Notes: generated by a model from the letters alone, not told the origin. 64,000 nucleotides of DNA from a virus (IMGVR_UViG_3300028859_000015), one strand, 5' to 3'. Positions 26,575 to 63,126 are shown, counted from the first letter of the stretch. Numbers and translations are program-made.

Positions 26575-26844
26575 TTAGGTATCTATTAGCTCAAATTCAG
26601 ATTCTAATATTGGTTTAGAAGTATCAATCTCAGCACTTTTATAAGTAGTCTCAGTATAACGTCCTTCATAAAAAGCTTTAAGTATATTATCATAAGAAGT
26701 TTCCCAAATAACATGAAAACTATCAGTATGGTTATCCATAAGCTTGGCTTTGGCTAGACAGCTTGTTAAATATTCCTCTATAGAGACTTGACCACAATTA
26801 AATTTTACATATCTACCACTTGGTATATATAATAGTTCTTTCAT
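26575..26844 (-). CDS. HIPTG/EFEIIEI family member (LLYIP subgroup)
   Basis: MKELLYIPSGRYV ... SEFELIDT. Confidence 0.5.
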   Translation of the reverse strand: MKELLYIPSGRYVKFNCGQVSIEEYLTSCLAKAKLMDNHTDSFHVIWETSYDNILKAFYEGRYTETTYKSAEIDTSKPILESEFELIDT

Positions 26845-36076: not shown

Positions 36077-36087
36077 TTACTCTCCTA

Positions 36088-40276: not shown

Positions 40277-40916
40277 AGTCGTATTCTCCTATTTTCCAGT
40301 AAATTGCTTTTTCTTAGCCAAAAACTGAGGATGAGTTTGATAGTCACAACCACTTTCTTGACACCACTTTGTAAATGGGTTATGAATAAGGACTAAACCA
40401 CATTTCTCACATACTAAATACGGTAAGCATTTAATTTTTTTCTTAAAACTATGCTGTTCCATTATTCAATCCAATAAAGAAAATTTATAACAGCTAAAAC
40501 AGTAAAACATTCAGCCCAGATATACCTGCCAGCATTAAAATCAATGACTGCCATCAAAGCACACAAAATTGCTGCAACCAAACTAGGTTTCATTATAGAC
40601 ATATTCGTTTCTCTTCATTATCTGCAATGAACTCTTCTAAATCAGGTGAATGAAATTCTTGAATCTTACCACATTTAAGACAAATTTCAAATTTAACATA
40701 TTCTCCATCTCCCAATCCAATATCTCTGGGAACATATCCAGTATATTTAAGATTTTTCATAGTAAGAGAGAATTTGTCAGAACATTTAGCCTGAACATTT
40801 GCGATTTTAGGATTACCACAACAAGCATTCATTTTAGGTTCTCCAAGAAAAATCAATTAACTATAATTAAATATATGGTAATAAGCCCCAATCTTGTTAA
40901 TCAAAGGAGATTTTAA

Positions 40917-41321
40917 ATGCTAACACCCTATCTACAACTTAAGGTAAATCCCTCAGCTGCTCCAGAAACTCAGACTAATCTTGAAGCTATTGATGCTGCC
41001 TTTGGTTCTCTGCTGACTGTTTATACAGCTACACTTTCTGCTGGCACTGTTACAGTCCTCAATGCTACAGTACCAACTACAGCACTAAGTCGTATTGTTT
41101 TTGCTAGAACAACTGCTGGCGGAACTGTCGGCACTGTTTCTTGCACCCTAACTGCTGGAACTTCTATTGTCTTTTCTAGCTCCAGTTCTTCAGATACCAG
41201 TGTAATTAGTTATCAGGTAGTAAATTCACCAGCTTCTTTCGTTCTTGGTGAAGAGCCCGCATTTGTTGCCGATGCTAGTGCGGATACTCAGACTGTTCCA
41301 GCACAGATTAAAAATTACTAA
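40917..41321 (+). CDS. Ala/Thr/Ser/Val-rich protein on plus strand with its own terminator
   Basis: SD AAAGGAGA 7 nt upstream. Local GC is much higher than surroundings. Followed by the terminator at 41345..41370. Confidence 0.55.
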   Translation: MLTPYLQLKVNPSAAPETQTNLEAIDAAFGSLLTVYTATLSAGTVTVLNATVPTTALSRIVFARTTAGGTVGTVSCTLTAGTSIVFSSSSSSDTSVISYQVVNSPASFVLGEEPAFVADASADTQTVPAQIKNY

Positions 41322-42021: not shown

Positions 42022-42918
42022 TTTAGCTTCGTTTCCTCATATAGATTAGCTGAATCTTCGTTTATCTTTGAAAAAACCTTCCTTTTTTACCACACATCCA
42101 AGGAAATATTCCCCACATTCTAAACTCTTGGCAAAAAACCATATTATCTGATTCCTTTATCCTCTTACTTCCATCAGTAAGGTCAATTTCAACACTACTA
42201 AAATGCTTACGTCTTTGGCATACGTAAGGTCTAGAATCGTTAGGTTTAATATATTCACAATTAATACAGAGATTAATTTCTTTTTCTTTTTTAGGCTTAA
42301 AGGGCCACATTAAAGCCACCCGATTTGTTTAGAAATTTCAGGAGTCATACCGCCCAAGGAATTAAATCTCTTCATAAAAACATCACTAAAAGGAAGAGAC
42401 CTATCAAAATAAATATGTCCTGGACTAGCAAATCTATATAAACTGGCCATTTCAATATGAGACATCATATTAATCTTATCTAAAGGCTGTTTAATTTCTG
42501 TATTAGTCATGCTGCTTCTCCTTAGCTTGACAACCTTCGGGCTTTTCAACCCAAACTTCATTATACCTGTCATAATAGTTCCCTTTTCTATCCCACTCAT
42601 ATCTTCCAATATGGCTCTTAAAAGCACCTACATCATCACAGCCACATTCAGGACATACAGTCCTTTTGGAACCATCCCAAGGAACATAACCACAATGACA
42701 TTGATATCTAAAAGTCCATGGACCAATTACATGAACAGCCTGAGAAGAAAAAAGAGTTTTCCAGAAAACACCCATTTTAGTCTCCTATCATCAAGGAAAA
42801 AGTTTACCGGCCCCCTATTAGACACGTTTGAGCTCAACTTCATGAAACCTCCAGGCACGATTATTCCATGAGGATTGATATTCAGATGTTACAAAAAAGT
42901 AAGTCAACGGCCCAATAC

Positions 42919-43344
42919 TTACCAAGGCATAAGTTTATTTTCATCATCCATGTCAGACCACATTTTACAAAATGCCATATTTTTTGCCATTCTAACAATC
43001 TCAGGACGATGATGAGAACAAAGCAAATCACACATAAAAACAGTGTCAGATGCCCTCAAACCACTCCAAACATTATTCCATTCAAGGCCACACTGAGTTC
43101 TTCCAACAGTAAACATCTTTGAATAAGCTGCTTTAAGCTGAGCCATAACAAGAAGATATCTTGCTTGAATCATGCTCTCATGAAGCATAGCAGCATCAAC
43201 AATCTTCATTCGTTCATAACTAGGCATCTTACAGAGTTTGTCAATAATTTTATTCTGTTTCTCAATTGTAGGAATATTGAGAAGTTTCCTAGCATATTTC
43301 TTTTGACGCCAGTTCTTTCCACAAAGATAGAAGGTTTCTTTCAT
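42919..43344 (-). CDS. hypothetical protein
   Basis: 141-aa ORF. Confidence 0.4.
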   Translation of the reverse strand: MKETFYLCGKNWRQKKYARKLLNIPTIEKQNKIIDKLCKMPSYERMKIVDAAMLHESMIQARYLLVMAQLKAAYSKMFTVGRTQCGLEWNNVWSGLRASDTVFMCDLLCSHHRPEIVRMAKNMAFCKMWSDMDDENKLMPW

Positions 43345-43399
43345 GTTAAGCCATCCTTTCAGTGATGGAAGATTAATGTGGTTGTGTATACTGTTTTTA

Positions 43400-49493: not shown

Positions 49494-49742
49494 TTACTTA
49501 TTAGACTTGCTGTCTTTCATGCCATCATCAAATCCACGGCACCAGAACCTATATTCCCTGGTATCTGGAGCATAAGGACATTCTCTGACTTTGGTCTTTC
49601 GATATGTCTTGCCAGAGACATATCCAGACTTTGCTGCTTCAATGATGGACGGCTTTTGGTTCTTGAGCTGTTGTGGAATAAGACCAACAGCATCAATAGT
49701 GATACCAGATTTTGCAAGGGCCTGACCAAGAGCAGTGGACAT
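49494..49742 (-). CDS. hypothetical protein, homolog of 57998..58291 (SIIEAA-SGY...TREY-FWC-GFD family)
   Basis: Shares SIIEAAKSGYVSGKTYRKTKVR..PY..TREYRFWCRGFDDG with the 58-kb copy. GC about 43% vs about 27% background. Confidence 0.55.
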   Translation of the reverse strand: MSTALGQALAKSGITIDAVGLIPQQLKNQKPSIIEAAKSGYVSGKTYRKTKVRECPYAPDTREYRFWCRGFDDGMKDSKSNK

Positions 49743-49902
49743 AAGTCCTCCTTAAAGAGAAAAGTTATAGGTTATTAGCTTTAGGGACTAATTATGAGAA
49801 TTGAATTAAATAACTCAGTCACTCTATCTGAGCAATAGAATCAATTCACCCACCACTTATTTAGTGTCTATAGAGTTTATGGGAAATTAATTATTTTTAT
49901 CT

Positions 49903-50139
49903 TTAATTATGTTGATTAAATATTTGATTCCATACCTGCTTATTTACTTGATTCTCTACTTGATCCCATACTTTATGGTGTAATTCATTAGCTACTTGAT
50001 TCCATACTTGCCTAAGTATTTGATTACTTATTTGAGTCTTTATTTGGTTACTTGCTTGATTATAAACTCTATTCCTTACTTGACTACATACTTGATTCCC
50101 TACTTTATTATCTACTTGACTCCTTACTGATTTAAGCAT
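49903..50139 (-). CDS. MLKSV-(xNQV)n tandem-repeat small protein
   Basis: SD AAGGGGA. Start ATGCTTAAATCAGTAAG. Body is 12-nt repeats N-Q-V-x. Confidence 0.55.
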   Translation of the reverse strand: MLKSVRSQVDNKVGNQVCSQVRNRVYNQASNQIKTQISNQILRQVWNQVANELHHKVWDQVENQVNKQVWNQIFNQHN

Positions 50140-50218
50140 TATTTATCCCCTTCATTGGTTTGTTAGTACTTGATGGAATAGCTATAAAAGCTACTCCACT
50201 AAATACTAAAATCAAATA

Positions 50219-50557
50219 TTAATCAGCAACGTTCCTCGTATAACCCTGAACATATTCCTTCTGAATATAGGATTCAAAGGTCTTACCAGCAGGAAGATTG
50301 AAATGGCCATGTTCTTCATGAGTGAGTTCGGCAGGAGCTTCATCCACATGAAGATAAATCTTACCTTCCAGCTCGTAGGCAGAAATACCAGGAATGGCCT
50401 CAACAGCATGATGATGGCCAGTCACTTCTCCATCAGCAAGAATATATCGGCCATTCACGGCTTCCAGCTTCTTGGCATTTGTTGGAATTGAAGAAACTTC
50501 CTCAACAAATACATCACCCTGACGAGCCTGCTTGTCAAACTTCTTGTTAGTCTTCAT
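50219..50557 (-). CDS. hypothetical protein (GC-rich cargo)
   Basis: 112-aa ORF. GC about 42%. Confidence 0.5.
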   Translation of the reverse strand: MKTNKKFDKQARQGDVFVEEVSSIPTNAKKLEAVNGRYILADGEVTGHHHAVEAIPGISAYELEGKIYLHVDEAPAELTHEEHGHFNLPAGKTFESYIQKEYVQGYTRNVAD

Positions 50558-50770
50558 TGATTTCTCCTCCAGAGAAAGGTTTTGTTGCTTTATTAATTTT
50601 TGACTTTATAGTTATAGCTTTGTGTAACTCTGTAATATCTAATAGACTTGATACTTCTATGTTAATATCATTACTAACTTTTTTCCATACTATATAATTT
50701 ACATTATTAAAGACACATCCACTTACTTGGGCTGTTACTTTACTTAACATCTCCCTTTTAACAGAATTAA

Positions 50771-50977
50771 TCATGTTTTTAAATCCTCAGTAATTATTTC
50801 TATTCTTATTTGCTCTCCTATTCCTATGAATGCTGTACTATCTATTTGATTACTTACTTGACTACTTACTTTCTTATTTATTTGGTTACTTGCTTGATTA
50901 AACACTTGATTAAACACTTGATTAAACACTTGACAGAATATTTGATTTCTTACTTGGGGCTTTATTGATTTGAGCAT
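50771..50977 (-). CDS. MLKSI-(xNQV)n tandem-repeat small protein
   Basis: Internal Met MLKSIKPQVRNQIF of track ORF 50771..51085. Directly follows the stop of the 328-aa gene. Confidence 0.5.
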   Translation of the reverse strand: MLKSIKPQVRNQIFCQVFNQVFNQVFNQASNQINKKVSSQVSNQIDSTAFIGIGEQIRIEIITEDLKT

Positions 50978-50981
50978 TTTA

Positions 50982-51968
50982 CTAGGTCTCAATGCTCGGA
51001 TTGTATTTAGCACCAGTCTTACCAAAGGTCGAAGCAACCGCATTTTTTGCGGTAAATTTTTGAGCTGCTCCAAAGGTTCCATCAAGCTTCATAGGACGAA
51101 GCTGGGGGTGAACACGAAGGAAGTAAGTCTTGTACATATGTTCTTTCCAATAATCCAGGTCTTTCTGATATTCAGCACGAGTCATATATTTCTTAATATC
51201 CCACTTTGGCTTAGGTTCAGGAGTGGAATTAAGCACTTCCACCATCATAATGTCTTCATCACCGTCAATTTTCTTACGCCAAAGAGTCCCAAAGGAATCA
51301 CTATGAATCTTTTCAGCATTGGTTCCCTTGAGATATTCAGCAACTCCAAACAAATCAATCATAATTCTTCGAACTTCCGCATTGGTTTCTTTTTCAATGC
51401 GGTCAACGGTAATGGAAGACCTGTCAAGAATAATATCTTCTGGAACACTGATACCATGAAAGAAGTACAAAAAATAACCATCACGATACTTAACAGCTGG
51501 GCCAGAAGTATTGTGAAGCCTATTTTCAGGGTCACGATGAAGCTCTGAAGGCCTGTCTTGGAGAACGGCAAGAGTTTCGTAGGCGCTCCACCAGCAACAA
51601 TTCTTCGCAAATTCAACAAGAAGATTAAACCCATTAGTAAAACCAGTGACCCCAACAACTTCCTGCATGTACTCATAGAAAGAAAGCCAAGAAGCCTCTT
51701 GATTACCGAAAGACATGTCAAAGAAAATGGAACTCTCTGACATAGAACTATCAATATTCTTAATAATAGAAATAGCTTCCTTCGGGGAACGTGCATAGAG
51801 GATGGTGTCGGGGGCCTTCAATCCAGTTTCTTCGTACAATTTTACTGCGCTTTTCTTTGCCTCCTCAAAATTGATAGGGTCTGTCGAAAGACCAATCTTC
51901 TGCCACTTATCGACAAATTCCGGAAATCTTGCTTCCTGTTCCTTGGTCAAGCTAGCGATTTTAGCCAT
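50982..51968 (-). CDS. hypothetical protein (328 aa, GC-rich cargo)
   Basis: Long ORF. GC about 40%. Confidence 0.55.
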   Translation of the reverse strand: MAKIASLTKEQEARFPEFVDKWQKIGLSTDPINFEEAKKSAVKLYEETGLKAPDTILYARSPKEAISIIKNIDSSMSESSIFFDMSFGNQEASWLSFYEYMQEVVGVTGFTNGFNLLVEFAKNCCWWSAYETLAVLQDRPSELHRDPENRLHNTSGPAVKYRDGYFLYFFHGISVPEDIILDRSSITVDRIEKETNAEVRRIMIDLFGVAEYLKGTNAEKIHSDSFGTLWRKKIDGDEDIMMVEVLNSTPEPKPKWDIKKYMTRAEYQKDLDYWKEHMYKTYFLRVHPQLRPMKLDGTFGAAQKFTAKNAVASTFGKTGAKYNPSIET

Positions 51969-51981
51969 TGTAGTTCTCCAG

Positions 51982-52218
51982 TTAGTGGGTTAGGTTATTT
52001 GATAGACTATTAAACAAAGCTCTTCTTGTGAGTTCTATTTGATTATCTACTTGATTCTTTATTTGATTATATACTTGATTATTTACTTGATTCCATACTT
52101 GAATATTTGTTTGCTTATATACTTGATTCTTTACTTGATTATCTACTTGATTCTTTATTTGATTATATACTTGATTATTTACTTGATTCCATACTTGGGG
52201 CTTTATTGATTTAAACAT
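51982..52218 (-). CDS. MFKSI-(xNQV)n tandem-repeat small protein
   Basis: SD AGGGGAA. 12-nt repeat body. Confidence 0.55.
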   Translation of the reverse strand: MFKSIKPQVWNQVNNQVYNQIKNQVDNQVKNQVYKQTNIQVWNQVNNQVYNQIKNQVDNQIELTRRALFNSLSNNLTH

Positions 52219-52220
52219 TA

Positions 52221-52331
52221 TTCATTCCCCTATTTGATTATATACTTGATTCCATACTTGATTCCTTACTTGATTATATACTCGTCTCAATACTTGTTCA
52301 CATACTTGACTCTTTACTAATTTAAGCATTT
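52221..52331 (-). CDS. short MLKLV-(xNQV)n repeat protein (36 aa)
   Basis: ATGCTTAAATTAGTAAAG start. Its stop TGA overlaps the SD of the next repeat gene. Confidence 0.4.
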
Positions 52332-52547
52332 TATTCAACACATTTGAATAGGAAATTTTTATCACTATTAGTCATATTAGGATGAAATTGTTTAGTCATA
52401 TTCCAGGCATGGTCTAAAATACTTGTTAACTCAAGGTCAGTATATTTTGCTTTACAATATTTGACAGATTTTTCAAAGTCTGGAAGATAAACATCCATCC
52501 TGAAAGAGTTATTAGACATGTGAGTCTCCTGTAGAGAGTGTTGAGGT

Positions 52548-52802
52548 TTATTCCCAAGGACAATCTATGCCTCTAACATAATTGAAAGGGTCTACCTCAA
52601 CTGATTTTCCATCTTTTACAGCAAATACAGTATTACATTTTTCACAAGTATATGGAGAATGCCTATTAACATTTACAAGAACTGATTTAGGAGCTTTTTT
52701 AAGTGAAAAAGTATCCAAATTACAGTTACCACTCTTACTCTGAAAATCTTCCCTGTGGCCACATTTAGGACAAGGTACTTTTACAGTATCATACATTCCC
52801 AT
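52548..52802 (-). CDS. zinc-ribbon protein
   Basis: CPKCGH...CEKCN. Confidence 0.45.
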   Translation of the reverse strand: MGMYDTVKVPCPKCGHREDFQSKSGNCNLDTFSLKKAPKSVLVNVNRHSPYTCEKCNTVFAVKDGKSVEVDPFNYVRGIDCPWE

Positions 52803-52965
52803 AGAGTTTCTCCTTGAGGCAATAAAAGTGAAGGTTATTCAGGCGATACCTTCAAACGCTTATCGAGGGCACCAGTAGTTTTTTTAAGAGAAACTACAAA
52901 CTCCTGGAGAAGATGCTGGTAGACTCAGGCACTACCCATATCTATCCTCATAGCATCTAAATAGT

Positions 52966-53018
52966 AGTGCTAGTAGATTCAGAATAGTTTTTCTATTCCT
53001 ATCTATCTTAATAGCACT
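52966..53018. ncRNA. structured repeat element, copy B
   Basis: Outer stem agtgcta/tagcact: three base pairs changed relative to copy A, all compensatory. Inner stem gaatag-ttttt-ctattc. Same conserved core. Confidence 0.5.
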
Positions 53019-53031
53019 CTATCAAATCAGC

Positions 53032-53211
53032 TTAATCCAAGAGCTGTTTCAAGAGTTTAACAAATAAAAATCCCACGGCAATACCAACAATAAAAAGCCA
53101 ATAATTATGAATTACAACACTAGGGAACTGTTTATACATTACATCATTCCAACCAAGCATAAGAATATAAAGAAGAAACATACCAAGAATAATGGAAATA
53201 ATTTGTTTCAT
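53032..53211 (-). CDS. 59-aa membrane protein
   Basis: MKQIISIILGMFLLYILMLGW... Not in the ORF track. Confidence 0.4.
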   Translation of the reverse strand: MKQIISIILGMFLLYILMLGWNDVMYKQFPSVVIHNYWLFIVGIAVGFLFVKLLKQLLD

Positions 53212-54236
53212 ATTGACTAATCTCCTTGTGGGGGCTATTAAATTATCGTCTTCATCTGGATTAAAGAAAGACCTACAATCAAAATTAAAATAAAATTTTC
53301 TTTCTTCTAACTCTGCTTCATAACTAGCAAGTTCTTCCTGGGCATCTAATTTTTCATTATAATATAGTTCATCAAGGGCTTTTTAATTTCTTTCTTTGAA
53401 GAAAGAAGTTTAGCCCTCACCTAAAAATCTTTATGAAATTGAATGCTGGTATTAAGGAGATTTTTCATACCTCTCCAAAAACCACGTTCCTTGAAATGGC
53501 AAATCCAATCATTGAGCTTATAATTATATGACCCGCAGCCACACTTAAAATAGAGTTTCATTGTAGTTCTCCTATGTTTCTATTTCTCGTTCCCATTTAA
53601 GCTGGGCCCTATGAGAGTTATAGACAACTTGTTCACAACCTATTCTAATATCCATATTGTTAACTTCATAACAACTAATAACAAAGTTAAAATCTTTAAA
53701 AAACCATAAATGTTTTTTAAACCATTTATTAAAACATGGCATATTTTTAAATCCAAATTTGAAATAATCTCTAAAATCCTCCCCCAAGCCATCATCTCTG
53801 GGAGTAGTCATATCCCCAAGCTCTGAATAAACCCCTGAATCACATAAGGCAGAATAAAAAATTTCATTTCTAAACCTATAGTTAAAAGGACCTTCACGAG
53901 TAATTTTATGTTCAAGTCTAAAAATTTCCATGTAGTCCTCCTAGGTTAGTGAATCAAATTAAGGGTTAGGTAATAAATACCTAACCACTAATCAGATTGG
54001 TGGGACTTGGAACTTTAAATTATATACTAGTATTTATTTTTCGCTGTATTTATAAGTAAGAATAGCTACAGGACTAATTTCCGTCTCACCTTCAAGAATT
54101 GGATGACCTTCAAAAACCATCCAACAATTACCTGAATAAATAGGCAGTTTAAGAACCTTGCTCAAATCATTTGTAATCACACGCTGCATTTTAGTTACCT
54201 TAACGTCACTATAAATAAGGGTATAGGGCTTCATTT

Positions 54237-54365
54237 TCAGTCCTTTCTTGTTATTCCGTTAAGTATTGATTGATTATATACTTGACTATATACTTGATTC
54301 CCTACTTGATTCCATACTTGAATACTTACTTGATTCCTTACTTGACTCCTTACTGATTTAAGCAT
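54237..54365 (-). CDS. short MLKSV-(xNQV)n repeat protein
   Basis: Same conserved start. Stop 3 nt before the next gene start. Confidence 0.4.
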   Translation of the reverse strand: MLKSVRSQVRNQVSIQVWNQVGNQVYSQVYNQSILNGITRKD

Positions 54366-54562
54366 TATTTATTCTCCTTTATTTGATTGTATACTTGATT
54401 CCATATTTGATTTAGTACTTTTTCTAATATTTGAAGATATACTTGATTCTTTATTTGATTATCTACTTGACTATATACTTGATTCCCTACTTGATTATCT
54501 ACTTGATTCCCTACTTGATTCCATACTTGAATACTTACTTGACTCTTTACTGATTTAAGCAT
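54365..54562 (-). CDS. MLKSV-(xNQV)n tandem-repeat small protein
   Basis: SD AAGGAGA. 65 aa. Confidence 0.55.
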   Translation of the reverse strand: MLKSVKSQVSIQVWNQVGNQVDNQVGNQVYSQVDNQIKNQVYLQILEKVLNQIWNQVYNQIKENK

Positions 54563-54565
54563 TAT

Positions 54566-54763
54566 TTATTCTCCTTTCAAGAGATAAGATTGTTCTTGAT
54601 TCCATATTTGATTTGGTACTTTTTCTAATATTTGAAGATATACTTGATTATTTACTTTACTCTCTACTTGATTACTTACTTGATTCCATATTTGACTCGT
54701 TACTTTGTCCTTTATTTGATGTCCCACTCTACTTCTTACTATAATAGTCTCTGATTTAAGCAT
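54566..54763 (-). CDS. MLKSE-(xNQV)n tandem-repeat small protein
   Basis: SD AGGAGA. 65 aa. Confidence 0.55.
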   Translation of the reverse strand: MLKSETIIVRSRVGHQIKDKVTSQIWNQVSNQVESKVNNQVYLQILEKVPNQIWNQEQSYLLKGE

Positions 54764-54779
54764 TACTTATCCCCATTCT

Positions 54780-56342
54780 TTATGGGACAATAGGCAAGCT
54801 GTCTGCTTCATTGACACTTGGAAATACAAATTGCCCATACCCTGTTCTATGGCCTTGTTTAAGATATCTAAAATTATATGGTTGAGTCAAAGGTCTGCTA
54901 CTATTATACATACCCAGAGTAGCACAATTAGTTTCAGCAATCTCTTTAATGATTCTATATGATTCAAGAAAATTAACTTTCATATCTTCAGCACACCAAT
55001 GATTACAAATTAAAACAGGCCTACCCACTGTTCGTCTTGCTGGCCCTGACACTCTCATATTCTGAAGAGAACTATTTAATGGGAAGAATTTTTTAGTATA
55101 GTGAACTTGAATAATAATTTCAAATTGATTTTCTTTGTCAGAATAATCAGTAAAGCTAACACCACGACTAGCCATAAAGCCAGCGATGATAATAACTTTA
55201 CGAAATCCCAAATCTTTTTGTTGTTTAATTAAATCAGCTAAAGTCTCTTCTGAACTTTCTTTGGTTTCTGAATTCATTACAAATAATCCAACTTTATTAC
55301 TTGCTCCCAATTCATTAAGATGTCTTTTAATTACCTCAGCCATTCCAAATTGTTGAATTTTACGATTTTCAAGACTAATTAAACAAAGTTGTACAATATC
55401 AGACCCCTCTTCCTGTTTGTTAGCTGCCTTTACAAACTGTTCAGTAGCAAAACTAACAGCTGGATAGAAACTATTATATGCTTGGTCCATATAATCACCA
55501 GTCCAACGATTACGAGCCTTACATCTATTTTCAACAATACGACCATCTAATACTATATTAGCAGGATGGTCAATACCAATACCGACATAATTTTGATAAG
55601 GTTGTTTATAAAGAACTAACCAATCATCCTTTTCTGCTGTAAGAATAGCAGCAGGAGTAGCAGAAACAAAGATAGTTCTACTATTAGATCTAGATTTAAC
55701 CATATTTTTAATTTGAAGAAGAAGCATAGTCACTGGAGGAAGGGAACTACCATCAGCTACTGGCTCTTCATCTAAAGTGTCTTCGTCATCAGATTCTATA
55801 TTTTTTTTCTTACTTTGCTTTCTTTCATTAGCCTCAATTGTATTTCTGGATTTGTCCGCCTCGTCAATTACTACAGTCACTGGTAAATCTTCCAGCATAT
55901 CTAGGATATCTTCTAGTTGTTTTAGATTATTAATTTCCATAAGCAAATGAATAATACGTTTTTTACCTACTGATTCTTTTAGAAACTTACCAAGTCTAAT
56001 ATCATCACGATAATTGACAATCTCAAAGCCAAGACTACGGGCTCTACTATTAGTCTGTGATGCTAGGCAGGTATTCTTATCACTAATAAAAACAATGGCA
56101 GATTCTTTATAGAAATGGCTAACTGTTTTAAGAACATCACTAGTTTTGCCACTTTGTACTGATTTGAATAAAATAATGCTGGTATAAGACTTATGCTCAA
56201 TTAAAACATCTTTAACTTCCGTACTGTTGGAGAGCATTAGGAATTTACCCATTGTATTTCTCCTATTTGGCAGCAAACTTCCACATGCCATTGTTGTTAA
56301 CTTCAGGTTTAGTATTGCTTGATGGATATGTAATAAATACAT
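54780..56342 (-). CDS. SF2 DEAD/DEAH-type helicase-like ATPase
   Basis: Motif I VQSGKTS, motif II VVIDEADKS, motif III FVSATPA. The track ORF starts at GTG 56348; the first ATG is at 56342. Confidence 0.55.
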   Translation of the reverse strand: MYLLHIHQAILNLKLTTMACGSLLPNRRNTMGKFLMLSNSTEVKDVLIEHKSYTSIILFKSVQSGKTSDVLKTVSHFYKESAIVFISDKNTCLASQTNSRARSLGFEIVNYRDDIRLGKFLKESVGKKRIIHLLMEINNLKQLEDILDMLEDLPVTVVIDEADKSRNTIEANERKQSKKKNIESDDEDTLDEEPVADGSSLPPVTMLLLQIKNMVKSRSNSRTIFVSATPAAILTAEKDDWLVLYKQPYQNYVGIGIDHPANIVLDGRIVENRCKARNRWTGDYMDQAYNSFYPAVSFATEQFVKAANKQEEGSDIVQLCLISLENRKIQQFGMAEVIKRHLNELGASNKVGLFVMNSETKESSEETLADLIKQQKDLGFRKVIIIAGFMASRGVSFTDYSDKENQFEIIIQVHYTKKFFPLNSSLQNMRVSGPARRTVGRPVLICNHWCAEDMKVNFLESYRIIKEIAETNCATLGMYNSSRPLTQPYNFRYLKQGHRTGYGQFVFPSVNEADSLPIVP

Positions 56343-56360
56343 ATCCACTAAACAATAATT

Positions 56361-56600
56361 CTAGTTAGCTATTTTATTACTTACTTGATTATATACTCGT
56401 CTCAATACTTGTTCACATACTTGAATTCTTACTTGAATTCTTACTTGAATTCTTACTTGATTACTTACTTGATTCCATGCTTGATTAAATACTTGATTAA
56501 ATACTTGATTAAATACTTGATTAAATACTTGATTAAATACTTGATTCGTTACTTGGGTATATATTTGGTTATCTACTTGATTCCTTACCGATTTAAGCAT
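56361..56600 (-). CDS. MLKSV-(xNQV)n tandem-repeat small protein
   Basis: Five consecutive FNQV units. 12-nt repeats. Confidence 0.55.
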   Translation of the reverse strand: MLKSVRNQVDNQIYTQVTNQVFNQVFNQVFNQVFNQVFNQAWNQVSNQVRIQVRIQVRIQVCEQVLRRVYNQVSNKIAN

Positions 56601-57589
56601 TGTCTATAGCCTTGATGCTAGTCCACCATGCTAGACATTCTTCAACTTTATCATAAGCCAATGGACAAGTTAGATTGTATTCGCATTGGCCACATATCTT
56701 TTCAGCCAATTCATTATGTTCGTTAGTTGTTTGTTCTTTATTGTCACTCATATAATCTCCTTGTTTTGAGTTTGTTCTTAGTTAACTAGGGGATGTCCTT
56801 TATTCAGAGTTCCTAGTTGAATAAAAACAAATACTGGCCCAGGATAGTATGTTCCCAGGCCAGTATATTTTACTATTGTTCTATAATCTCTAGGTTTAGT
56901 CTCAACGTTGTGGTAGTTTTTATAAGTTGGCTTAACTACCAAACCATGGCATATATCTAACCCTGCATGTACCACCTCACAATTCCCTATATTACCCAGG
57001 CGATTAGGTAATATAGCTCAAGAAGATTGGAGTTGTATTCTTGGGGGATTTAGATATGCGGAAAATCCCCAACAACCGCTTAATTAACATGACATTGTTC
57101 ATCTTTTCTCCTATTGGTGTGGGTGCCATTTTCGATAACAGCATTCCACAATTGCTCTAGCTCTTTCAAGCTAGGACAGTTAGAAGGAGACTCATGTTTA
57201 GACACAGGCTTGTATCCATAAACAAGAGTCAGTAAGAAAAAGTTGAGGGTTTATACGATACCCACAAACGTTTATTCCCCAGTCGCTTCACAGGTTTCCC
57301 TCCACATACTGGGGTACTTCTACTATGTGAGAGTTTGAGGCTATATAGTCCACCACTATGTAGACTATTAGTAGGATACTACTGGAATATAAACAACTCC
57401 CAGCAATATGCAGCTCACAACCAGACGTGAGGGTTATTCGATACCAAACTGACCCCCTAAAAATCAATTTAATACAGCCAAGCGTATTAAACTTGGCTGA
57501 ATAAACTGATTGTATTTATTTGAGCTGTAATAGGCCTAGGAGACCTACTTGCCGTTCTTCATCTTACCGTGTGCCTTGATCTTTCCGGC

Positions 57590-57691
57590 CTTACTTTGCC
57601 CGGTCCTGGTCTTGTTCAGGCGGTCGGAAACGGTGAGTTTGTTCTTGTTCACCTTGTCGAACTTCTCAACCTTGACTTTGGCTTTGGCCAT
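57590..57691 (-). CDS. small Lys-rich basic protein (about 35 aa; a +1 shift at a C4 run would extend it to about 50 aa)
   Basis: SD AAGGAG. MAKAKVKVEKFDKVNKNKLTVSDRLNKTRTGAK*. The other frame continues QSKAGKIKAHGKMKNGK. GC-rich islet. Confidence 0.35.
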
Positions 57692-57748
57692 GATTACTTC
57701 TCCTTTTTGTTGTGTTGTTTCTTGTATATAGAGGGAGGATGTTGAGGT

Positions 57749-57889
57749 TTATTCGAAATGAACGGTATAACGGGTATCCTTGTGAGAGATGCCCTTGTTC
57801 ATGCGCTTCTGTTTGTTGTTCTGGAGACGCTTGTACTGCTTTCGTGAACCTGCCTTATCCAGAGTGAGGAACTTCTCAGTGGTTGACAT
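57749..57889 (-). CDS. 46-aa basic protein
   Basis: SD AAGGAGAG. MSTTEKFLTLDKAGSRKQYKRLQNNKQKRMNKGISHKDTRYTVHFE. Confidence 0.4.
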   Translation of the reverse strand: MSTTEKFLTLDKAGSRKQYKRLQNNKQKRMNKGISHKDTRYTVHFE

Positions 57890-57997
57890 GTTTCTCTCCT
57901 TGTTAATAAATACCAGGAACTATTCCTGATAATATAAGATTATCTTGATGATAGTCTAGGAGTTAGCCAGACCACCACTAAAACAACTGATTATTTA

Positions 57998-58291
57998 TTA
58001 ATCTTCAGAGGCATAATCCTCCGTATTGTATTCGGGCTCCTGGTGAACAAGCTTGGCATCCTGGATACCGTAATCAAAACCATGGCACCAGAACGTGTAC
58101 TCCCTGGTCGTCTTCTCGTAGGGATTGAGACGAAGCTTGAACTTCTTGTAGGTGTATCCGGCATAATACCCGGACGTGGCCGCTTCGATGATGGACCGAG
58201 GATAGCCCTTCAGCTGACGTGCCACCAGAGAAACATTGTCGATCTTCACAATGTTCTCACCTTCGATGTGGATGTTTTCAAGACCTTTCAT
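57998..58291 (-). CDS. hypothetical protein, homolog of 49494..49742
   Basis: SIIEAATSGYYAGYTYKKFKLR..PY..TREYTFWCHGFDYG. SD AGGAGA. GC about 47%. Confidence 0.55.
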   Translation of the reverse strand: MKGLENIHIEGENIVKIDNVSLVARQLKGYPRSIIEAATSGYYAGYTYKKFKLRLNPYEKTTREYTFWCHGFDYGIQDAKLVHQEPEYNTEDYASED

Positions 58292-58366
58292 GACGTTCTC
58301 CTATCTTTCTTGTGTTGTTGGAAATAAGTCTTAATCACTATGACTAAGACCAGTAAAAAGCCGGTA

Positions 58367-58660
58367 CTAAAACTTATTGAGGAAGTGGATAGTAACAAGG
58401 CTAAGACTAAGGATACCCCATATACAGAAGGTACCCAGTCCCATGAACAAGATAGCATCCAGTAAAGAAATACCAGATTCTTTCTTGTCCATATCAACTA
58501 TCTTGTTAGACACAATGAACTGACCATTATGTTTGGCCCATTCCTTGCATCTTTTGATTCCCTCATTGTCTGCGAGGGTAGAGAAGTGTGTACGCCCAGG
58601 ATTTTCAGGCCTCCCACTAACTAAGGACATTATCTGTCCTTTCTTGATTATGTTGAGCAT
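58367..58660 (-). CDS. hypothetical protein with C-terminal TM helix
   Basis: 97-aa ORF. Confidence 0.45.
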   Translation of the reverse strand: MLNIIKKGQIMSLVSGRPENPGRTHFSTLADNEGIKRCKEWAKHNGQFIVSNKIVDMDKKESGISLLDAILFMGLGTFCIWGILSLSLVTIHFLNKF

Positions 58661-58792
58661 TGTATGATTCCTCCTATAGATAAAGAAACTGTTGTTGACA
58701 AATATGAGAGGGAGGTGTTAATGAGATACTAACATTTAACACTCAATCTCACATTTAGCAAAAACAGTAATAAATTATGGCATATATCTACC

Positions 58793-58984
58793 TTAGGGTA
58801 TAATTTCTGCCCTTATTTTATTAACTACTTGATTATATACTTGATTAAACACTTGATTAAACACTTGATAGAATATTTGATTTCTTACTTGGGTATATAT
58901 TTGGTTATCTACTTGATTCCATACTTGATTCTTTACTTGGGTATATATTTGGTTATCTACTTGAGTCCTTACTGATTTAAGCAT
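58793..58984 (-). CDS. MLKSV-(xNQV)n tandem-repeat small protein
   Basis: SD AAGGGGA. 63 aa. Confidence 0.55.
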   Translation of the reverse strand: MLKSVRTQVDNQIYTQVKNQVWNQVDNQIYTQVRNQIFYQVFNQVFNQVYNQVVNKIRAEIIP

Positions 58985-59150
58985 TATTTATCCCCTTTGT
59001 TAGTTAATGAATTGTTTTAAGAATATCCTGTGCCATATTGATATTACTAGGAGGGGCAGGGTATTATTAAAGCAACTAATATAAATATACTATGGGCGAG
59101 AATCACAGTTCTATCAACTATCCTACACAAACACTCCATCTAATCTAGCC

Positions 59151-59281
59151 TATCTAACCCGTGTTAACTTGTGTTGACTTTATCTAACTTATTTAAATTT
59201 ATCTAACCCGTGTTAACTTGTGTTAACTTGTGTTGACTTTATCTAACTTATTTAAATTTATCTAACCCGTGTTAACTTGTG
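59151..59281. repeat. about 2.5 copies of a 49/59-nt tandem repeat with internal 10-nt GTGTTAACTT sub-repeats (iteron-like)
   Basis: tatctaacccgtgttaacttgtgttgactttatctaacttatttaaatt repeated. The second unit carries an extra gttaacttgt. Confidence 0.7.
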
Positions 59282-59584
59282 CGGATTCTTGATAATATTT
59301 GTTTAAATTCTCCTAAATTTCTGTCAGGATTTGTCGATAATCTAATAATTAAGTATGTAGACCAAGATAGGAGACCTTGTAACATTCAAAGCTTTGTAAG
59401 ACTCAATCGGTTCGTCCAGAGCATAAACACTAGAATAGGGACAATGGTTAAATAACTTCCTTTACAAATTATGTTGTATCTATACTATATAAAGTTCATT
59501 ATACCCTGACGGATTATGACCGTCTTTAATTGTTTATGTTACTATTACAGGGTGGATAACAAACTAATTCAAACAAGAAAATTA

Positions 59585-59694
59585 GAATTACTCTTAATAA
59601 ATATGAGGGGGGGAGTCTAAACCTCAGCCTCATATTTATTAAAAATAAAAAGGGTCTGTCACAAGATACCCTTTAGAGGGGCAAGCTTATGACA
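59585..59694 (-). terminator. two tandem rho-independent terminators downstream of the 243-aa gene
   Basis: 13-bp stems aaagggtctgtca/tgacagacccttt and aataaatatgagg/cctcatatttatt. T-runs on the minus strand. Confidence 0.55.
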
Positions 59695-59714
59695 GACCCT
59701 TTTATATTGCCGTA

Positions 59715-60446
59715 TTACTTGGCAGGCTTTTCGGAAGTGTTACGGAGCATGACGATATTGTCTTCATCCAGCCCGTTCTCCTGGAACTTCTTTTCCAGGA
59801 AGGTGATGTAGTCTTCCTTGGAAACTTCCTTGGCCTTGGCCTTGAGGGCGACCAGAGCATCGATCTCGTTCTGGATGTCTTTGATGACAGCAGAAGAAGG
59901 ATCGTTGACGGTACGGATGTCAAGATACTTCCCAGACTTGCAGAACCGGCGCTTGACATCAGCTTCAGGATCAGCAGTAGATTTGTTCTTGTTCAGGTCG
60001 ATGATGCGTTCCTGAATTTCCGACATGACCCCACGGAAAAACTCAGGAGTCTTCTCTTTGGGCTCCAGTTCGGCCTGTTCCTGATCGAGCTTTGCCTGCT
60101 GTTCCGTGATGTAAAGGCTCAGGCCAGGTGCAAGCTTCTTTTCGGAAAGCCTGATTAGCTTGTTGTAATCCATGTCTTCAACAGTCTCTCCGATGCTTTC
60201 CATGACGGAGAAGACATCAGAAAAGGAACGCTTGGACATGGTGACAGGGCCGACAGTTGCGGGAACCTTGGCCTTCTTTTCTTCACGGGTCCTGGGCTTT
60301 TCTTCCACGAATCCCACGAAGTTGAAAAAGACACTGGTGGAGCCTTTTTCCTTATCTGCGCTGGCCTCGGTCACGATGATGTTTTCGTGGACCAGGAAAG
60401 CTTCGTCATGCTCTGTCCCTGAGATAGCCAAGAATTTATAGGCCAT
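59715..60446 (-). CDS. hypothetical charged/coiled-coil protein with foreign composition
   Basis: 243-aa ORF. GC about 46-48% vs about 27% background. Codons such as CTG/GGC/GAC are unlike the rest of the window. Confidence 0.6.
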   Translation of the reverse strand: MAYKFLAISGTEHDEAFLVHENIIVTEASADKEKGSTSVFFNFVGFVEEKPRTREEKKAKVPATVGPVTMSKRSFSDVFSVMESIGETVEDMDYNKLIRLSEKKLAPGLSLYITEQQAKLDQEQAELEPKEKTPEFFRGVMSEIQERIIDLNKNKSTADPEADVKRRFCKSGKYLDIRTVNDPSSAVIKDIQNEIDALVALKAKAKEVSKEDYITFLEKKFQENGLDEDNIVMLRNTSEKPAK

Positions 60447-60649
60447 GGTATTACTCCCATATAGAATACTACTGTGCTACATTCAAAGGTATGTAGCGAA
60501 CCTATGTGTTTGTTGCCAGTGTACAAAATAAAAACCAGATAAGAAAATAACAAACTGGATTGATTAGCATTGGTTAGTCTTTGATAGACCTTCGTTGCTT
60601 TCCAGTTTGTTATTTGCCATCGGCTCATCATCATATATACCCGCAAATC

Positions 60650-61210
60650 TTACATGTCCATCCGATTATGGCATTATTTGTGCTTATACTTTAACCATTC
60701 ATAATTAATCCTTCATACGAACTTATATTAAACACTCATATGAACTTATATAAACTAAACATATTAATCATTCATGAGAAACTTGGCATGTTTTATGCTT
60801 ATAGTTAAATGGTTTATACTTATTGTTAGTATGAATTAGTATTAAACATTCATATAAACTTATACTAACAAGATATATTAGTTCATATTAACCTGCCATA
60901 TTAACTCATATGTCTTGTTAGTATAAACCCATATAAAAGTGCCATATTTTCTCATATATATTATTCATGAAAAAGTTGGCACGATTTTTGCCCCGGCTTA
61001 TATGAATGATATATCTTACATTATGAAACCTATGAATGGCTAATAGGTGATTGGCAATAAATATTCGTGTGATAAATTTTTTTCCAATTTTTTGAAATTA
61101 TTTTTTTAGTTTTTCCAATTTTTTGAAATTGCTTTTCTAAATTTTTGAACTTGTTTTTCTAATTTTTCCTAAAATTTTCTAATTCTTTCTCTAATTCATT
61201 AACTTTATTT
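60650..61210. repeat. repeat-rich non-coding block
   Basis: Multiple TCATATGAAC-like units. ATTCATGA-AAA-TTGGCA-G occurs twice. TTTTCCAATTTTTTGAAATT occurs twice. No ORF of 60 aa or more. Confidence 0.6.
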
Positions 61211-61357
61211 ACTGCTATCACATAATTCATATACACTTTTCCAAGTATAATTAGTAGCTTTCTTTCTTGTGGTCAGAAACATCAACTGGTAAGGGCACAA
61301 TCTCCATAAAATTATCCTAAAATATCTCAAATTTATTAATGGTTTGGTGGCCAGTCT

Positions 61358-61633
61358 TTATATAACCCTGCCAATATCTCTCAAATATTCTATTTCTTTG
61401 TCAGATATCTCAATTATCTCAAACTCATTCTTACAAATTTTAATATAATATTCAGAACCATATAAATTACAATAACCATTATTTAAGACATTAATAGCTT
61501 CTTCCATAGTTTTAAGACACATAAAATTATATGAATTATGAGTTAACGTGACATAACAAACAGAATCTTTTGGAGTTTCTGTTAATATAGGTCTAATATA
61601 TTCTCCGGTTGGTATATGTAATATCTTATACAT
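61358..61633 (-). CDS. HIPTG/EFEIIEI family member
   Basis: MYKILHIPTGEYIRP ... NEFEIIEISDKE... Confidence 0.6.
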   Translation of the reverse strand: MYKILHIPTGEYIRPILTETPKDSVCYVTLTHNSYNFMCLKTMEEAINVLNNGYCNLYGSEYYIKICKNEFEIIEISDKEIEYLRDIGRVI

Positions 61634-61886
61634 TCTTATCTTCTATCTCTATTATCTCAAATTCATTTTCACAAATATCAGTTATCCATGAAGGTTTATC
61701 ATTAATACGAACTGTAATACCATTAAGTTTTCTAACATATTTTAGAATTCTAGCTAAACAATATTCAGCATCAAGTATATCAGGATAAGTTTGAACCATA
61801 TATAAAGGAAAATCAGCAAATACAGGACTAGATAGTATACCAGAATAATAAGTACCGGTAGGAATATGTAATATTAAATATCTCAT
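61626..61886 (-). CDS. HIPTG/EFEIIEI family member
   Basis: MRYLILHIPTGTYYSG ... ENEFEIIEIEDKNV. Confidence 0.6.
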   Translation of the reverse strand: MRYLILHIPTGTYYSGILSSPVFADFPLYMVQTYPDILDAEYCLARILKYVRKLNGITVRINDKPSWITDICENEFEIIEIEDKNV

Positions 61887-62117
61887 TTTATTTCTATTAT
61901 CTCAAATTCATTTTCACAAGACACTTCAAAACAGCCCTGATTATTAATATAGATATATTGATTTTTTATACTGTTAGTTGTAAGCTCTTCAACCTTTCTG
62001 ATATTAATCATATTGGCCGTATTTTTATCATTAGAAAATACGGCAATATTATACAAAAAAAATATCCGTTTCAGCATTATACCAAGTACCGGTTAATATA
62101 TGAAAAATATAATACAT
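61883..62117 (-). pseudogene. HIPTG/EFEIIEI family copy frameshifted at a T8/A8 homopolymer
   Basis: Frame A: MYYIFHILTGTWYNAETDIFFV*. Frame B (track ORF 61883..62077): ...IFFLYNIAVF...CENEFEIIEIK. The switch occurs at the a8 run at 62054..62061. Confidence 0.5.
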
Positions 62118-62125
62118 CTAATCTC

Positions 62126-62371
62126 CTATATCTTTATTTCTATTATAGCCAATTCATTTTCTAATATCAGCATAGTCTCTAATGTATCATTAATAAGAAA
62201 ATATGCCGGATTATTTTTACAGTAATTCAATATACTACTTATTTTAAATATACTATCTTTATTATTTTTAAACTCTTTACTATAGTCATACCTATCACTA
62301 AAAGTAGGAATATCTATAGCGCCCATAAATGTATAATAGCTACCTGTCGGAATATGTAATATCTTATACAT
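62126..62371 (-). CDS. HIPTG/EFEIIEI family member
   Basis: MYKILHIPTGSYYTF ... ENELAIIEIKI. Confidence 0.6.
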   Translation of the reverse strand: MYKILHIPTGSYYTFMGAIDIPTFSDRYDYSKEFKNNKDSIFKISSILNYCKNNPAYFLINDTLETMLILENELAIIEIKI

Positions 62372-62630
62372 TATTGTCTTCTATCCTCTTGTATTCTATC
62401 TCTATTACTTCAAATTCATCTCTATCTGGTATCCTATAACTATCCTCAAAACGTACTTCAGTATGTAACATATGAAGTAAATAGCTAGTAGCTTTCTCTA
62501 AAGTAATAAAGGAACTTGACAAACCAATATAGGAGGTAGTAAATATCAAATGACCAGCAAAACCTCTAACTTCTCCAATATAAGTTCCGCTTAATAAATG
62601 TAGTATTTTATATCTAATCCCATCTCTCAT
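62364..62630 (-). CDS. HIPTG/EFEIIEI family member
   Basis: RYKILHLLSGTYIGE ... DEFEVIEIEYK. Confidence 0.55.
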   Translation of the reverse strand: MRDGIRYKILHLLSGTYIGEVRGFAGHLIFTTSYIGLSSSFITLEKATSYLLHMLHTEVRFEDSYRIPDRDEFEVIEIEYKRIEDNNV

Positions 62631-62907
62631 CTATTATTTCAAACTCATTAAAGTTAACATAGATTATATTAATAGTTTGTGTTTGTTTATAGTTTGGACT
62701 TATATTTATTTGTGATACCCCTAATAACTTTTTTAGGTCATTATAGGCGGATTCATAAGAGGTAAAATATTTAGCCCATTCAAAGTCTACAAATAAAAGT
62801 AAATGATTTATTACATGTGTAGAGCTATAATAAAATTGTCCTGATGGTATGTGTTTTATTTTATAATTCATATTAAGATATGGCATAGAAATAGAGAATG
62901 TTTTCAT
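62614..62907 (-). CDS. HIPTG/EFEIIEI family member
   Basis: YKIKHIPSGQFYY ... NEFEIIDERWD. Confidence 0.55.
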   Translation of the reverse strand: MKTFSISMPYLNMNYKIKHIPSGQFYYSSTHVINHLLLFVDFEWAKYFTSYESAYNDLKKLLGVSQINISPNYKQTQTINIIYVNFNEFEIIDERWD

Positions 62908-62952
62908 ATTAATTTCCAGATATAACTTAATTTCTGGATTCTTTATAATAAA

Positions 62953-63126
62953 ATACTAACTAATTTCTATTACCTCATAATTACTAGAAAACTCTGGGCA
63001 TTGTATTGTTATCCAGCCAATCATACTTTCTGCCGTTTGCTTCCTAGAAAATATCCAACGCTCATGAATACTATTAGGAACATATTCTCCAGATATTACG
63101 TTAAGAATAACATATTGTTTAGCCAT
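62953..63126 (-). CDS. HIPTG/EFEIIEI family member (57 aa, below track cutoff)
   Basis: MAKQYVILNVISGEYV ... NYEVIEIS. Confidence 0.45.

Follow-up and report, generated by a model that had tools for sequence, protein, structure and literature searches.

Results

Genes and features at the locus

The DNA analysed here is a window of 64,000 nt from the virus IMGVR_UViG_3300028859_000015, in which coordinates count from the first letter. Our subject is its segment at about 49.5-60.5 kb, where a gene for a DUF6745 protein, a family of small genes encoding tetrapeptide tracts of the form (xNQV)n, and a block of small genes with unusual codon usage next to a stretch devoid of open reading frames (ORFs) lie side by side (Table 1). 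Nearly all genes of the window are on the minus strand, and they include AAA ATPases, an RNA ligase, ThyX, an HNH protein, OmpA- and Band7-like proteins, tRNAs and large families of small paralogues. Given these backbone genes (AAA ATPases, RNA ligase, ThyX, HNH, tRNAs and co-oriented small genes), the window is a piece of a large AT-rich phage genome, and the phage is probably virulent. The guanine plus cytosine (GC) content is 0.315 for the window, 0.295 for the mean gene and 0.308 for intergenic DNA.

No close relative was found among GenBank phages, either by megablast of the region or by tblastn of backbone and island proteins, and scans of IMG/VR with the 522-aa and DUF6745 proteins gave no match. 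The comparisons below use metagenomic contigs (numbered L001 onward) retrieved via two proteins of the region. L001 and L016-L019 are strains 99-100% identical to the window, L008 and L009 are ~92% identical to it, L002 matches window positions 56284-50975 at ~82% nt identity, L003-L007 match positions 61107-56749 at 71-82% nt identity, and L012 has a homologue of the 243-aa gene with 52% aa identity.

Table 1. Features of the 49.5-61.4 kb region and a related, putatively mobile ORF elsewhere in the window (GC3, GC content at third codon positions; RBS, ribosome-binding site; tract gene, free-standing (xNQV)n gene)
Position	Strand	Feature	Details
42919-43344	-	141-aa ORF next to tRNA-Leu(UAA)	99.8% identical copy in island slot of L008/L009 next to tRNA-Lys
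49494-49742	-	82-aa small protein, mild GC3 excess	GC3 0.39, z = +2.9; weak Rmf/CrpP-like signal
49903-50139	-	Tract gene, 78 aa	phmmer matches mostly DUF6745 proteins
50219-50557	-	112-aa protein, phrog_27831, DUF6745 partner	PHROG 3.1e-14; GC3 0.35
50547-50774	-	Degenerate tract-like ORF, 75 aa	Decayed period-4 V/I pattern in translation
50771-50977	-	Tract gene, start MLKSIKPQV	4 nt after DUF6745 stop; shared RBS/start context
50982-51968	-	DUF6745 protein, 328 aa, tract-less form	Pfam PF20530, 170.5 bits vs cut-off 27, E = 3.7e-50
51982-52329	-	Two tandem tract genes: 51982-52218 (78 aa), 52222-52329 (35 aa)	Immediately upstream of the DUF6745 gene
54237-54763	-	Three tandem tract genes (42, 65, 65 aa)	Missing from this position in L002
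54780-56348	-	522-aa P-loop/helicase-like protein, native composition	PADLOC Helicase_II, N-terminal, 2.6e-7; GC3 0.20
56361-56600	-	Tract gene, 79 aa	Chimera of two tandem genes in 99%-identical strains
56825-57480	-	ORF-less conserved stretch, GC 0.40, candidate structured RNA(s)	~650 nt; ends at terminator hairpin 56831-56866
57469-57501	-	Hairpin element after 48-aa gene	Duplicated in L003, L008; copies precede tRNA genes or inserts
57545-57691	-	48-aa lysine-rich protein gene	GC3 0.80, z = +9.6
57749-57889	-	46-aa basic protein gene	GC3 0.62
57952-57981	-	Intergenic element marking variable slot	Direct repeat bracketing 1.3-kb insert in L008/L009
57998-58291	-	97-aa small protein, paralogue of 49494-49742	GC3 0.62
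58367-58660	-	97-aa protein, hydrophobic C-terminus	GC3 0.48; single frame clearly best in tblastx
58793-58984	-	Tract gene, 63 aa (83 aa in L008/L009)	
59161-59281	.	62-nt perfect direct repeat, iteron-like	Copies overlap 2 nt; 10-nt sub-repeats (GTTAACAC[AG][AG])
59588-59703	-	Two consecutive terminator hairpins after 243-aa gene	
59715-60446	-	243-aa orphan protein gene	GC 0.50, GC3 0.64; outside tract-gene array
60447-61357	.	Repeat-rich non-coding region, AT-rich (GC 0.28)	Upstream of 243-aa gene

The GC excess resides in third codon positions

A sequence-only reading of this DNA had described the ORFs between the (xNQV)n genes as GC-rich cargo in a background of about 27% GC, unique in the window, and had taken the repeat genes as markers of a hotspot for recent horizontal acquisition. 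The elevation is real (GC 0.438 at 49494-49742, 0.434 at 50219-50557, 0.413 at 50982-51968, 0.431 at 57590-58660 and 0.499 at 59715-60446, i.e. 0.41-0.50), although the background is higher than had been assumed, at the window and mean-gene values given above, and 57590-58660, counted as one ORF, really consists of four small genes and their spacers, two of these genes (48 and 46 aa) being easily overlooked. By raw GC the region is not alone, as 5801-6700, 35601-36800 and 40901-41300 also reach at least 0.40. The genes of these three stretches have normal GC3 (0.20-0.27), so that their GC is explained by amino-acid content; GC3 and codon fit are the discriminating measures. Against a background of 130 window genes (GC3 0.208 +/- 0.061), a strong tier comprises the five genes at 57545-57691, 57749-57889, 57998-58291, 58367-58660 and 59715-60446, hereafter the island genes, with GC3 of 0.48-0.80 (z = +4.4 to +9.6) and codon-fit z of -5 to -10. 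A mild tier comprises 49494-49742, 50219-50557 and 50982-51968, with GC3 of 0.35-0.39 (z = +2.4 to +3.0), a level equalled by a few genes outside the region, e.g. 38987-39172 at z = +2.9. The region is nevertheless, as had been claimed, the part of the window with the greatest heterogeneity in composition and structure.

Three of the four codons previously singled out are raised relative to background, namely CTG (0.34 vs 0.03), GAC (0.41 vs 0.19) and GGC (0.19 vs 0.11), whereas the fourth, CCG, is raised in the mild tier only; larger shifts concern ATC (0.77 vs 0.07), AAG (0.79 vs 0.29) and CAG (0.94 vs 0.28). The codons avoided in the island genes are TTA (Fisher test, p = 2e-6), CAA (1e-7), AAA (3e-16) and ATA (1e-3). 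In the tetranucleotide analysis proposed earlier, run on a composition-normalised signature, the island is only a moderate outlier (z = -1.7 to -2.5), 49.5-52 kb is not one, and the strongest outlier of the whole window lies at 27001-29000 (z = -3.5), overlapping a 595-aa AAA ATPase gene (27591-29378). The intergenic GC of 0.308 also exceeds the backbone GC3 of 0.206, the reverse of what is usually expected in AT-rich genomes.

Spacers between the island genes have a GC of 0.31-0.37 (vs 0.308 for intergenic DNA genome-wide), and the tract gene within the strong-tier block has a GC3 of 0.20. The excess therefore affects third codon positions and one structured RNA-like stretch and not the regional DNA, which argues against both donor composition and biased gene conversion. 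GC-biased gene conversion, or some other mutational effect acting regionally on a segment prone to recombination, would draw on the mosaic identity of the locus, in which the window and L008 are ~100% identical in the 48-aa, 46-aa and 97-aa genes within flanks of ~89-92%, a pattern indicating frequent recombination; such a regional process, however, should reach the spacers and the interleaved tract gene, neither of which is GC-enriched, and we hold it to be quite improbable.

The odd codon usage is old and maintained

Relatives of the phage carry the same cargo in the same positions, with the flagged genes syntenic at 74-83% nt identity, and the anomaly itself survives quantification. For the 243-aa gene, the divergence at fourfold degenerate sites (K4) is 0.90 to L003 and 1.23 to L012, and GC3 is 0.64, 0.71 and 0.70 in the window, L003 and L012, respectively. 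Neutral two-state decay toward the backbone equilibrium predicts values of 0.28-0.38 at K4 of 0.9-1.2, against 0.56-0.77 observed, so the amelioration model fails for the strong tier, with a GC3 of 0.64-0.71 kept in three lineages. Likewise, GC3 in L003 and L008 is high in the orthologues of all five island genes (0.48-0.88) and low, without exception, in backbone and tract genes (0.16-0.22). Synteny together with unchanged GC3 at K4 of ~1 means that the strong-tier codon usage is not the trace of a recent import; it is a stably maintained, gene-specific property, and the genes that carry it are old residents.

An ancient acquisition from a GC-richer donor, either another phage or the host, whose codon usage has not yet been erased, would suit the mild tier. 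In L020, a contig of a distant metagenomic phage with a GC of 0.43 whose DUF6745 protein is 50% identical to that of the window, the genes of the DUF6745 module have a GC3 of 0.44-0.60, and the fourfold-site GC of the DUF6745 gene is 0.34 in the window vs 0.20 in L002 (backbone 0.14-0.16), as if decaying. In the strong tier the same explanation is contradicted by the failed decay prediction and by the three lineages that each hold a high GC3, and no donor-side homologues were found, so that as a general account of the region we consider it unlikely. The mild GC3 excess of the DUF6745 and 112-aa genes would fit a module that came long ago from a GC-richer phage and has since ameliorated in part, the change between window and L002 being unpolarised. 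In two unrelated phage-like contigs, DUF6745 genes (L014 8001-8918, GC 0.60; L015 8001-8963, GC 0.50) have a GC3 at or above that of their neighbours (z = +1.7 and +0.6, respectively), hinting that a slightly raised GC3 may be a trait of the DUF6745 family.

As for what maintains the strong tier, the window of this phage lineage encodes the tRNAs Gln-UUG and Leu-UAA, to which relatives add Lys-UUU and Leu-CAA. A further element at 37381-37452 (minus strand) is a tRNA by Rfam (50.8 bits) that ARAGORN missed, with the anticodon loop CUUAUAA, the anticodon UAU (which would read AUA) and an unusual T-arm. Since TTA, CAA, AAA and ATA are read by tRNAs of the phage lineage, the island genes avoid the codons served by the phage's own tRNAs. 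The most likely cause would be selection on the synonymous sites of the five genes, favouring early or high-level translation with an unmodified host tRNA pool. Differences in codon usage between early and late genes of phages have been reported and are linked partly to the host tRNA pool (PMC5683454).

DUF6745, a partner protein and a detached tetrapeptide tract form one module

In a 54-member alignment, the DUF6745 protein of the window shows the LTxEQ...SP N-terminal segment and the core motifs RLH..GPA, NAEVRR and NSTPEP, and it has the residues of the columns that are invariant or nearly so. At least 34 of the 120 best DUF6745 homologues, about a third, carry an internal tetrapeptide tract that separates the N-terminal segment from the core (residues ~75-170); the window protein is without it, and tract genes lie directly on both sides of its gene. 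Free-standing and fused forms have one repeat unit in common, x-[NDAS]-[QS]-[VL], and when a free-standing tract protein was used in an HMMER/phmmer scan of 1.84e9 (representative) proteins, 63 of the 81 top matches (416 in total) were DUF6745 proteins by Pfam. By sequence comparison, the free-standing (xNQV)n genes are thus a detached form of the internal tract of DUF6745. A word-indexed homology search with the tract protein gave no match, owing to its low complexity, and a pattern scan of IMG/VR gave one weak match, in a giant-virus metagenome-assembled genome contig (L013; 63% over 19 residues in a 425-aa ORF).

The family comprises nine clear (xNQV)n genes and one degenerate member, all on the minus strand at 49.9-59.0 kb. 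Their proteins start with MLKS, MFKS or MLKL, and the genes share their RBS/start context; a conserved promoter cassette like the promoter-early stem-loops (PeSLs) of other phages was considered upstream of them and rejected, as this RBS/start context is all that they have in common. The NQV codons are AAT-CAA-GTA in the window and AAT-CAG-GTC in L020, homogenised within each genome, and since different codons spell the same NQV, the repeat is conserved as protein. AlphaFold2 models the product of 56361-56600 as a single 77-residue helix with a predicted local distance difference test (pLDDT) score of 92.8, and each tract gene is predicted to encode one long amphipathic alpha-helix.

Gene order extends the association to a third component. 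In L020, three tandem tract genes are followed by a tract-less DUF6745 gene and then by a homologue (109 aa) of the 112-aa protein, and in Microcystis phage Ma-LMM01 the DUF6745-like gp174 adjoins gp175, another homologue of that protein. The likeness of the fused and free tracts, the order in L020 and the adjacency in Ma-LMM01 together indicate that DUF6745, the ~110-aa protein and the tract belong to a single module and are not independent cargo. The DUF6745 family is found, too, in bacteria, in phages that differ widely in GC and on plasmids of actinobacteria and cyanobacteria. Its model is confident (pLDDT 94), but no solved structural relative was found for it, nor any literature on DUF6745 or PF20530.

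Tract genes and slots vary between strains

At 56361-56600 the window has one tract gene where L017, L018, L019 and L009 have two in tandem, and the window gene is the chimera expected of unequal recombination across the shared RIQVRIQVCEQVLRRVYN segment. The number of FNQV units is 3, 4, 5 or 7 depending on the strain, among strains that are 99% identical elsewhere, and the number of tract genes differs also in L008, L002 and L003.

Other gene content differs between related genomes as well, as the sequence-only reading had expected. The slot at ~57995 is empty in the window, holds a tRNA-Lys and genes for 141-aa, 50-aa and 52-aa proteins in L008 and L009, and holds genes for 114-aa and 66-aa proteins and a tRNA-Lys in L003. 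The tRNAs of the block are Lys-UUU (L003, L008 and L009) and Leu-CAA (L003), with no tRNA gene in the window's own 56.8-58.7 kb. Short intergenic elements mark these slots: the L008 insert lies between the copies of a 44-nt direct repeat, and a hairpin element of 36 nt is duplicated in L003 and L008, its copies lying just upstream of tRNAs. The elements contain a stem-loop and a promoter-like site and have putative promoter or terminator activity. What delimits the variable slots is therefore not the repeat genes, which are tied to DUF6745, itself one of the supposed cargo genes, but these short intergenic repeats.

The only clear recent transfer concerns the 141-aa ORF. Window 42893-43360 is 99.8% identical to L008 3307-3774 and L009 3355-3822 within flanks of ~92%, which identifies the ORF as recently transferred; its composition is near-native (GC3 0.30). 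It matched no family, endonuclease families included, and, standing just downstream of a tRNA gene in both places, it looks like a mobile, tRNA-associated selfish gene.

A candidate structured RNA and the small proteins beside it

The ORF-less stretch at 56825-57480 is conserved as blocks between indel-rich segments. Its minimum free energy is far below that of shuffled sequences (z = -7.6), and it shows 21 compensated pairs vs 3-5 in slid controls, a number reached in 0 of 500 shuffles, the covariation being drawn from about three effective sequences and the structure derived from those same sequences. It had no match in Rfam, either at the gathering score or at E <= 1. A coding role was considered and rejected, as tblastx shows no frame preference and the sole RBS-preceded ORF (MNNVMLIKR...) is frameshifted in L003. 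We regard the stretch as a candidate new, unclassified structured RNA in a phage tRNA region. A metagenome scan for diverged relatives returned only ~99% identical strains, useless for covariation, and exposed the tract polymorphism described above. In L003, a ~125-nt insert (6023-6148) that is absent from the window follows the extra tRNA-Leu(CAA); it has an 11-bp stem (CTTGAGATAGC...GCTATCTCAAG) and internal hairpins and is possibly another small structured RNA.

With such a strongly structured, covarying stretch adjacent, the codon shift could in principle be a by-product of constraint at the RNA level, the mRNAs being GC-rich for structure or to escape an AU-targeting ribonuclease, and the fall of A at third codon positions from 0.34 to 0.14 in the island genes would accord with this. 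The structural evidence, however, comes from the non-coding stretch only, and in the 48-aa gene nearly all substitutions relative to L003 are synonymous third-position changes (1/1/10 by codon position; 9 synonymous, 2 non-synonymous), which speaks against tight base-pairing there. We consider an RNA-level explanation very unlikely. The same pattern of differences means that the 48-aa gene is certainly real.

The 243-aa protein has only 12 homologues, all unannotated and metagenomic, and the contexts checked are those of syntenic relatives. The 82-aa and 97-aa proteins of 49494-49742 and 57998-58291 are 48% identical to each other. The former scores below the cut-offs of Pfam RMF (PF04957; 15.5 vs 27.9 bits, E = 0.018) and NCBIfam Rmf_like_phage (NF041887; 15.4 vs 40, E = 0.0092); the latter matches no Rmf model and has no family match above threshold, and phmmer against PDB found no RMF. 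A 50-aa protein in the variable insert of L008 and L009 (L008 4098-4250) also matches the RMF model weakly (E = 0.051). Candidates resembling Rmf/CrpP thus recur in the region in three forms, none of which reaches a family threshold; with three sub-threshold matches and no PDB support, we rejected an Rmf/CrpP identity for the two paralogues and keep it as a lead only.

The non-coding features named in the sequence-only reading are all present: the iteron-like element is a perfect direct repeat, two terminators stand in tandem, and the repeat-rich block at 60650-61210 is AT-rich (GC 0.242). The direct repeat, for which L003 shows no conservation, occupies the spacer between the terminators of the 243-aa gene and the next tract gene; the wider region at 60447-61357 is conserved with respect to L003 and shows no frame preference. 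On its high-coordinate side, the region adjoins one of several tandem arrays of a paralogue family of 55-100 aa starting MYKILHIPTGEY... and often ending ...EFEIIEI, with 25 or more copies in the window (1252-5084, 20100-24236, 26575-26844 and 61358-63126, minus strand).

An integrated replicon is not supported

A different interpretation, that of the sequence-only reading, is that the repeat genes mark a hotspot of recent acquisition and that the GC-rich ORFs, an SF2 helicase, the iterons and the terminators are remnants of one or more integrated replicons or satellites. Much of what it starts from is correct, including the GC3 and codon anomaly, the iteron-like repeats and tandem terminators, the variable gene content and, in addition, the occurrence of DUF6745 on plasmids of actinobacteria and cyanobacteria. 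The helicase itself is only partly borne out: the 522-aa protein has an N-terminal helicase match in PADLOC, the only and weak match in the region to that collection of defence-system models, but none in Pfam, NCBIfam or PDB, and its orthologue in L002 is 91% identical at the aa level. The only ORFs longer than 120 aa at 49-61.4 kb are those of DUF6745, the 522-aa P-loop protein and the 243-aa orphan. Domains of integrases or recombinases, replication initiators (Rep) and primases were not found in this interval with Pfam, PHROGs, NCBIfam or PADLOC, nor were att-type boundary repeats found flanking the block, and the block is present and syntenic in every relative retrieved, none of which is without the island. 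The comparison of the GC-rich ORFs with phage and plasmid collections, suggested as a check, left the 243-aa gene without a match in either. Spacers are native in composition, gene order is kept, GC3 is unchanged after K4 of ~1, and the sole demonstrable recent transfer is native in composition. Synteny and stationarity largely refute a recent replicon-derived origin, which we regard as highly improbable.

Discussion

Our analyses indicate that the 49.5-60.5 kb segment is a phage hyperplastic region of a new variety, that is, a fast-changing region of accessory genes, and it probably holds two unrelated things that the sequence-only reading had merged. The first is the DUF6745 module at 49.9-52.3 kb, from which tract copies would have spread to 59.0 kb; the tract genes would have multiplied and would evolve by slipped-strand events and unequal homologous recombination. 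The second is a block of small genes and stable RNA at 56.8-60.45 kb, in which the five island genes most likely owe their avoidance of codons read by phage tRNAs to selection on synonymous sites for the host tRNA pool, and in which genes would be gained and lost, by a shuffling resembling that mediated by PeSLs, at slots bracketed by short repeated intergenic elements.

Several observations weigh against this interpretation. The relatives are short metagenomic contigs, so synteny could be traced only piecewise. Free-standing tract genes were not found beside DUF6745 in L014, L015 or Ma-LMM01, and a putative physical or functional tie of the tract proteins to DUF6745 is suggested by family architecture and gene adjacency only. 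The 243-aa, 48-aa, 46-aa and 97-aa proteins have no recognisable function. The stationarity of GC3 bears on maintenance and not on cause, and the island genes might have had an ancient foreign origin; the host-like character of their codons is presumed, being deduced from the tRNAs that the phage lineage encodes. Finally, each of the bracketing elements occurs only once in the 64-kb window, and for this reason we do not file them as PeSLs.

A broader and more speculative possibility, which we would put forward only tentatively, is that the tract helices, DUF6745 and the ~110-aa partner are one widespread, uncharacterised phage system, in which a hypervariable tetrapeptide-repeat helix, supplied in cis or, as here, in trans by many gene copies that recombine rapidly, would give the DUF6745 core an element of diversifiable length or surface, a diversification device driven by slippage; beside it, host translation may be the target of a host-codon-optimised cassette of tiny basic proteins and of a new structured RNA of ~650 nt that occupies the tRNA slot.

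These data call for caution in calling islands, because atypical GC or codon usage in a phage is by itself no evidence that a gene was transferred recently. In the present case the genes of oddest composition are the oldest residents, and the one demonstrable recent transfer is compositionally invisible. The analysis also gives DUF6745 a first handle, in the form of a conserved partner gene, an optional tetrapeptide helix in cis or trans and strain-level variation of the tract, and the island genes offer a clean natural case for the partitioning of translation between host and phage tRNA pools.

Comparison with known systems

Hyperplastic regions with modular shuffling mediated by PeSLs have been described in T4-type phages (Arbiol et al. 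2010, PMC2839356; Comeau et al. 2014, PMC4122927). The window shares with them small, mostly orphan and co-oriented genes, a content that differs between close relatives, indels in relatives that are bracketed by short repeats, and tRNA genes and a mobile ORF that come and go. It differs in that its bracketing elements are single-copy and not a dispersed multi-copy family, and in having a second, protein-coding repeat family, the tract genes, as a substrate for unequal recombination; moreover, T4-type status of the phage is hinted at only by a match to the Phage_T4_Y00F family on a neighbouring gene in L002 and by general resemblance.

Stage-specific codon usage and relations between phage tRNAs and codons are also known (Mioduser et al. 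2017, PMC5683454; Nolan et al. 2006, PMC1524935). As in those cases, a subset of genes in the window is distinct from the rest, and the phage tRNAs correspond to the AT-rich codons that the bulk of the genes use, but the contrast in the window is extreme (GC3 0.8 vs 0.2), involves no more than five small genes and has persisted across deep divergence.

The tRNA gene region of phage T4 contains small stable RNAs and a free-standing homing endonuclease. The block studied here resembles it in being GC-richer, with tRNAs in relatives, an adjacent structured RNA candidate and a mobile ORF beside tRNAs. On the other hand, the window's own block is without a tRNA, the 141-aa ORF matches no endonuclease family, and the RNA candidate, at ~650 nt, far exceeds the stable RNAs of T4 in size.

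With the fused DUF6745 proteins, the window shares the same repeat unit, and it has the ~110-aa partner in common with L020 and Ma-LMM01; the difference is that the window and L020 encode the tract in separate, multi-copy small genes. In bacteria, coding tandem repeats are found at variable-number tandem repeat or contingency-type loci. The tract genes resemble these in having a 12-nt in-frame unit whose number shifts between near-identical strains and which is homogenised within the genome. However, changes of unit number in the window stay in frame, leading to variation in length and surface and not to on/off phase variation, and they take place in multi-copy genes of a phage.

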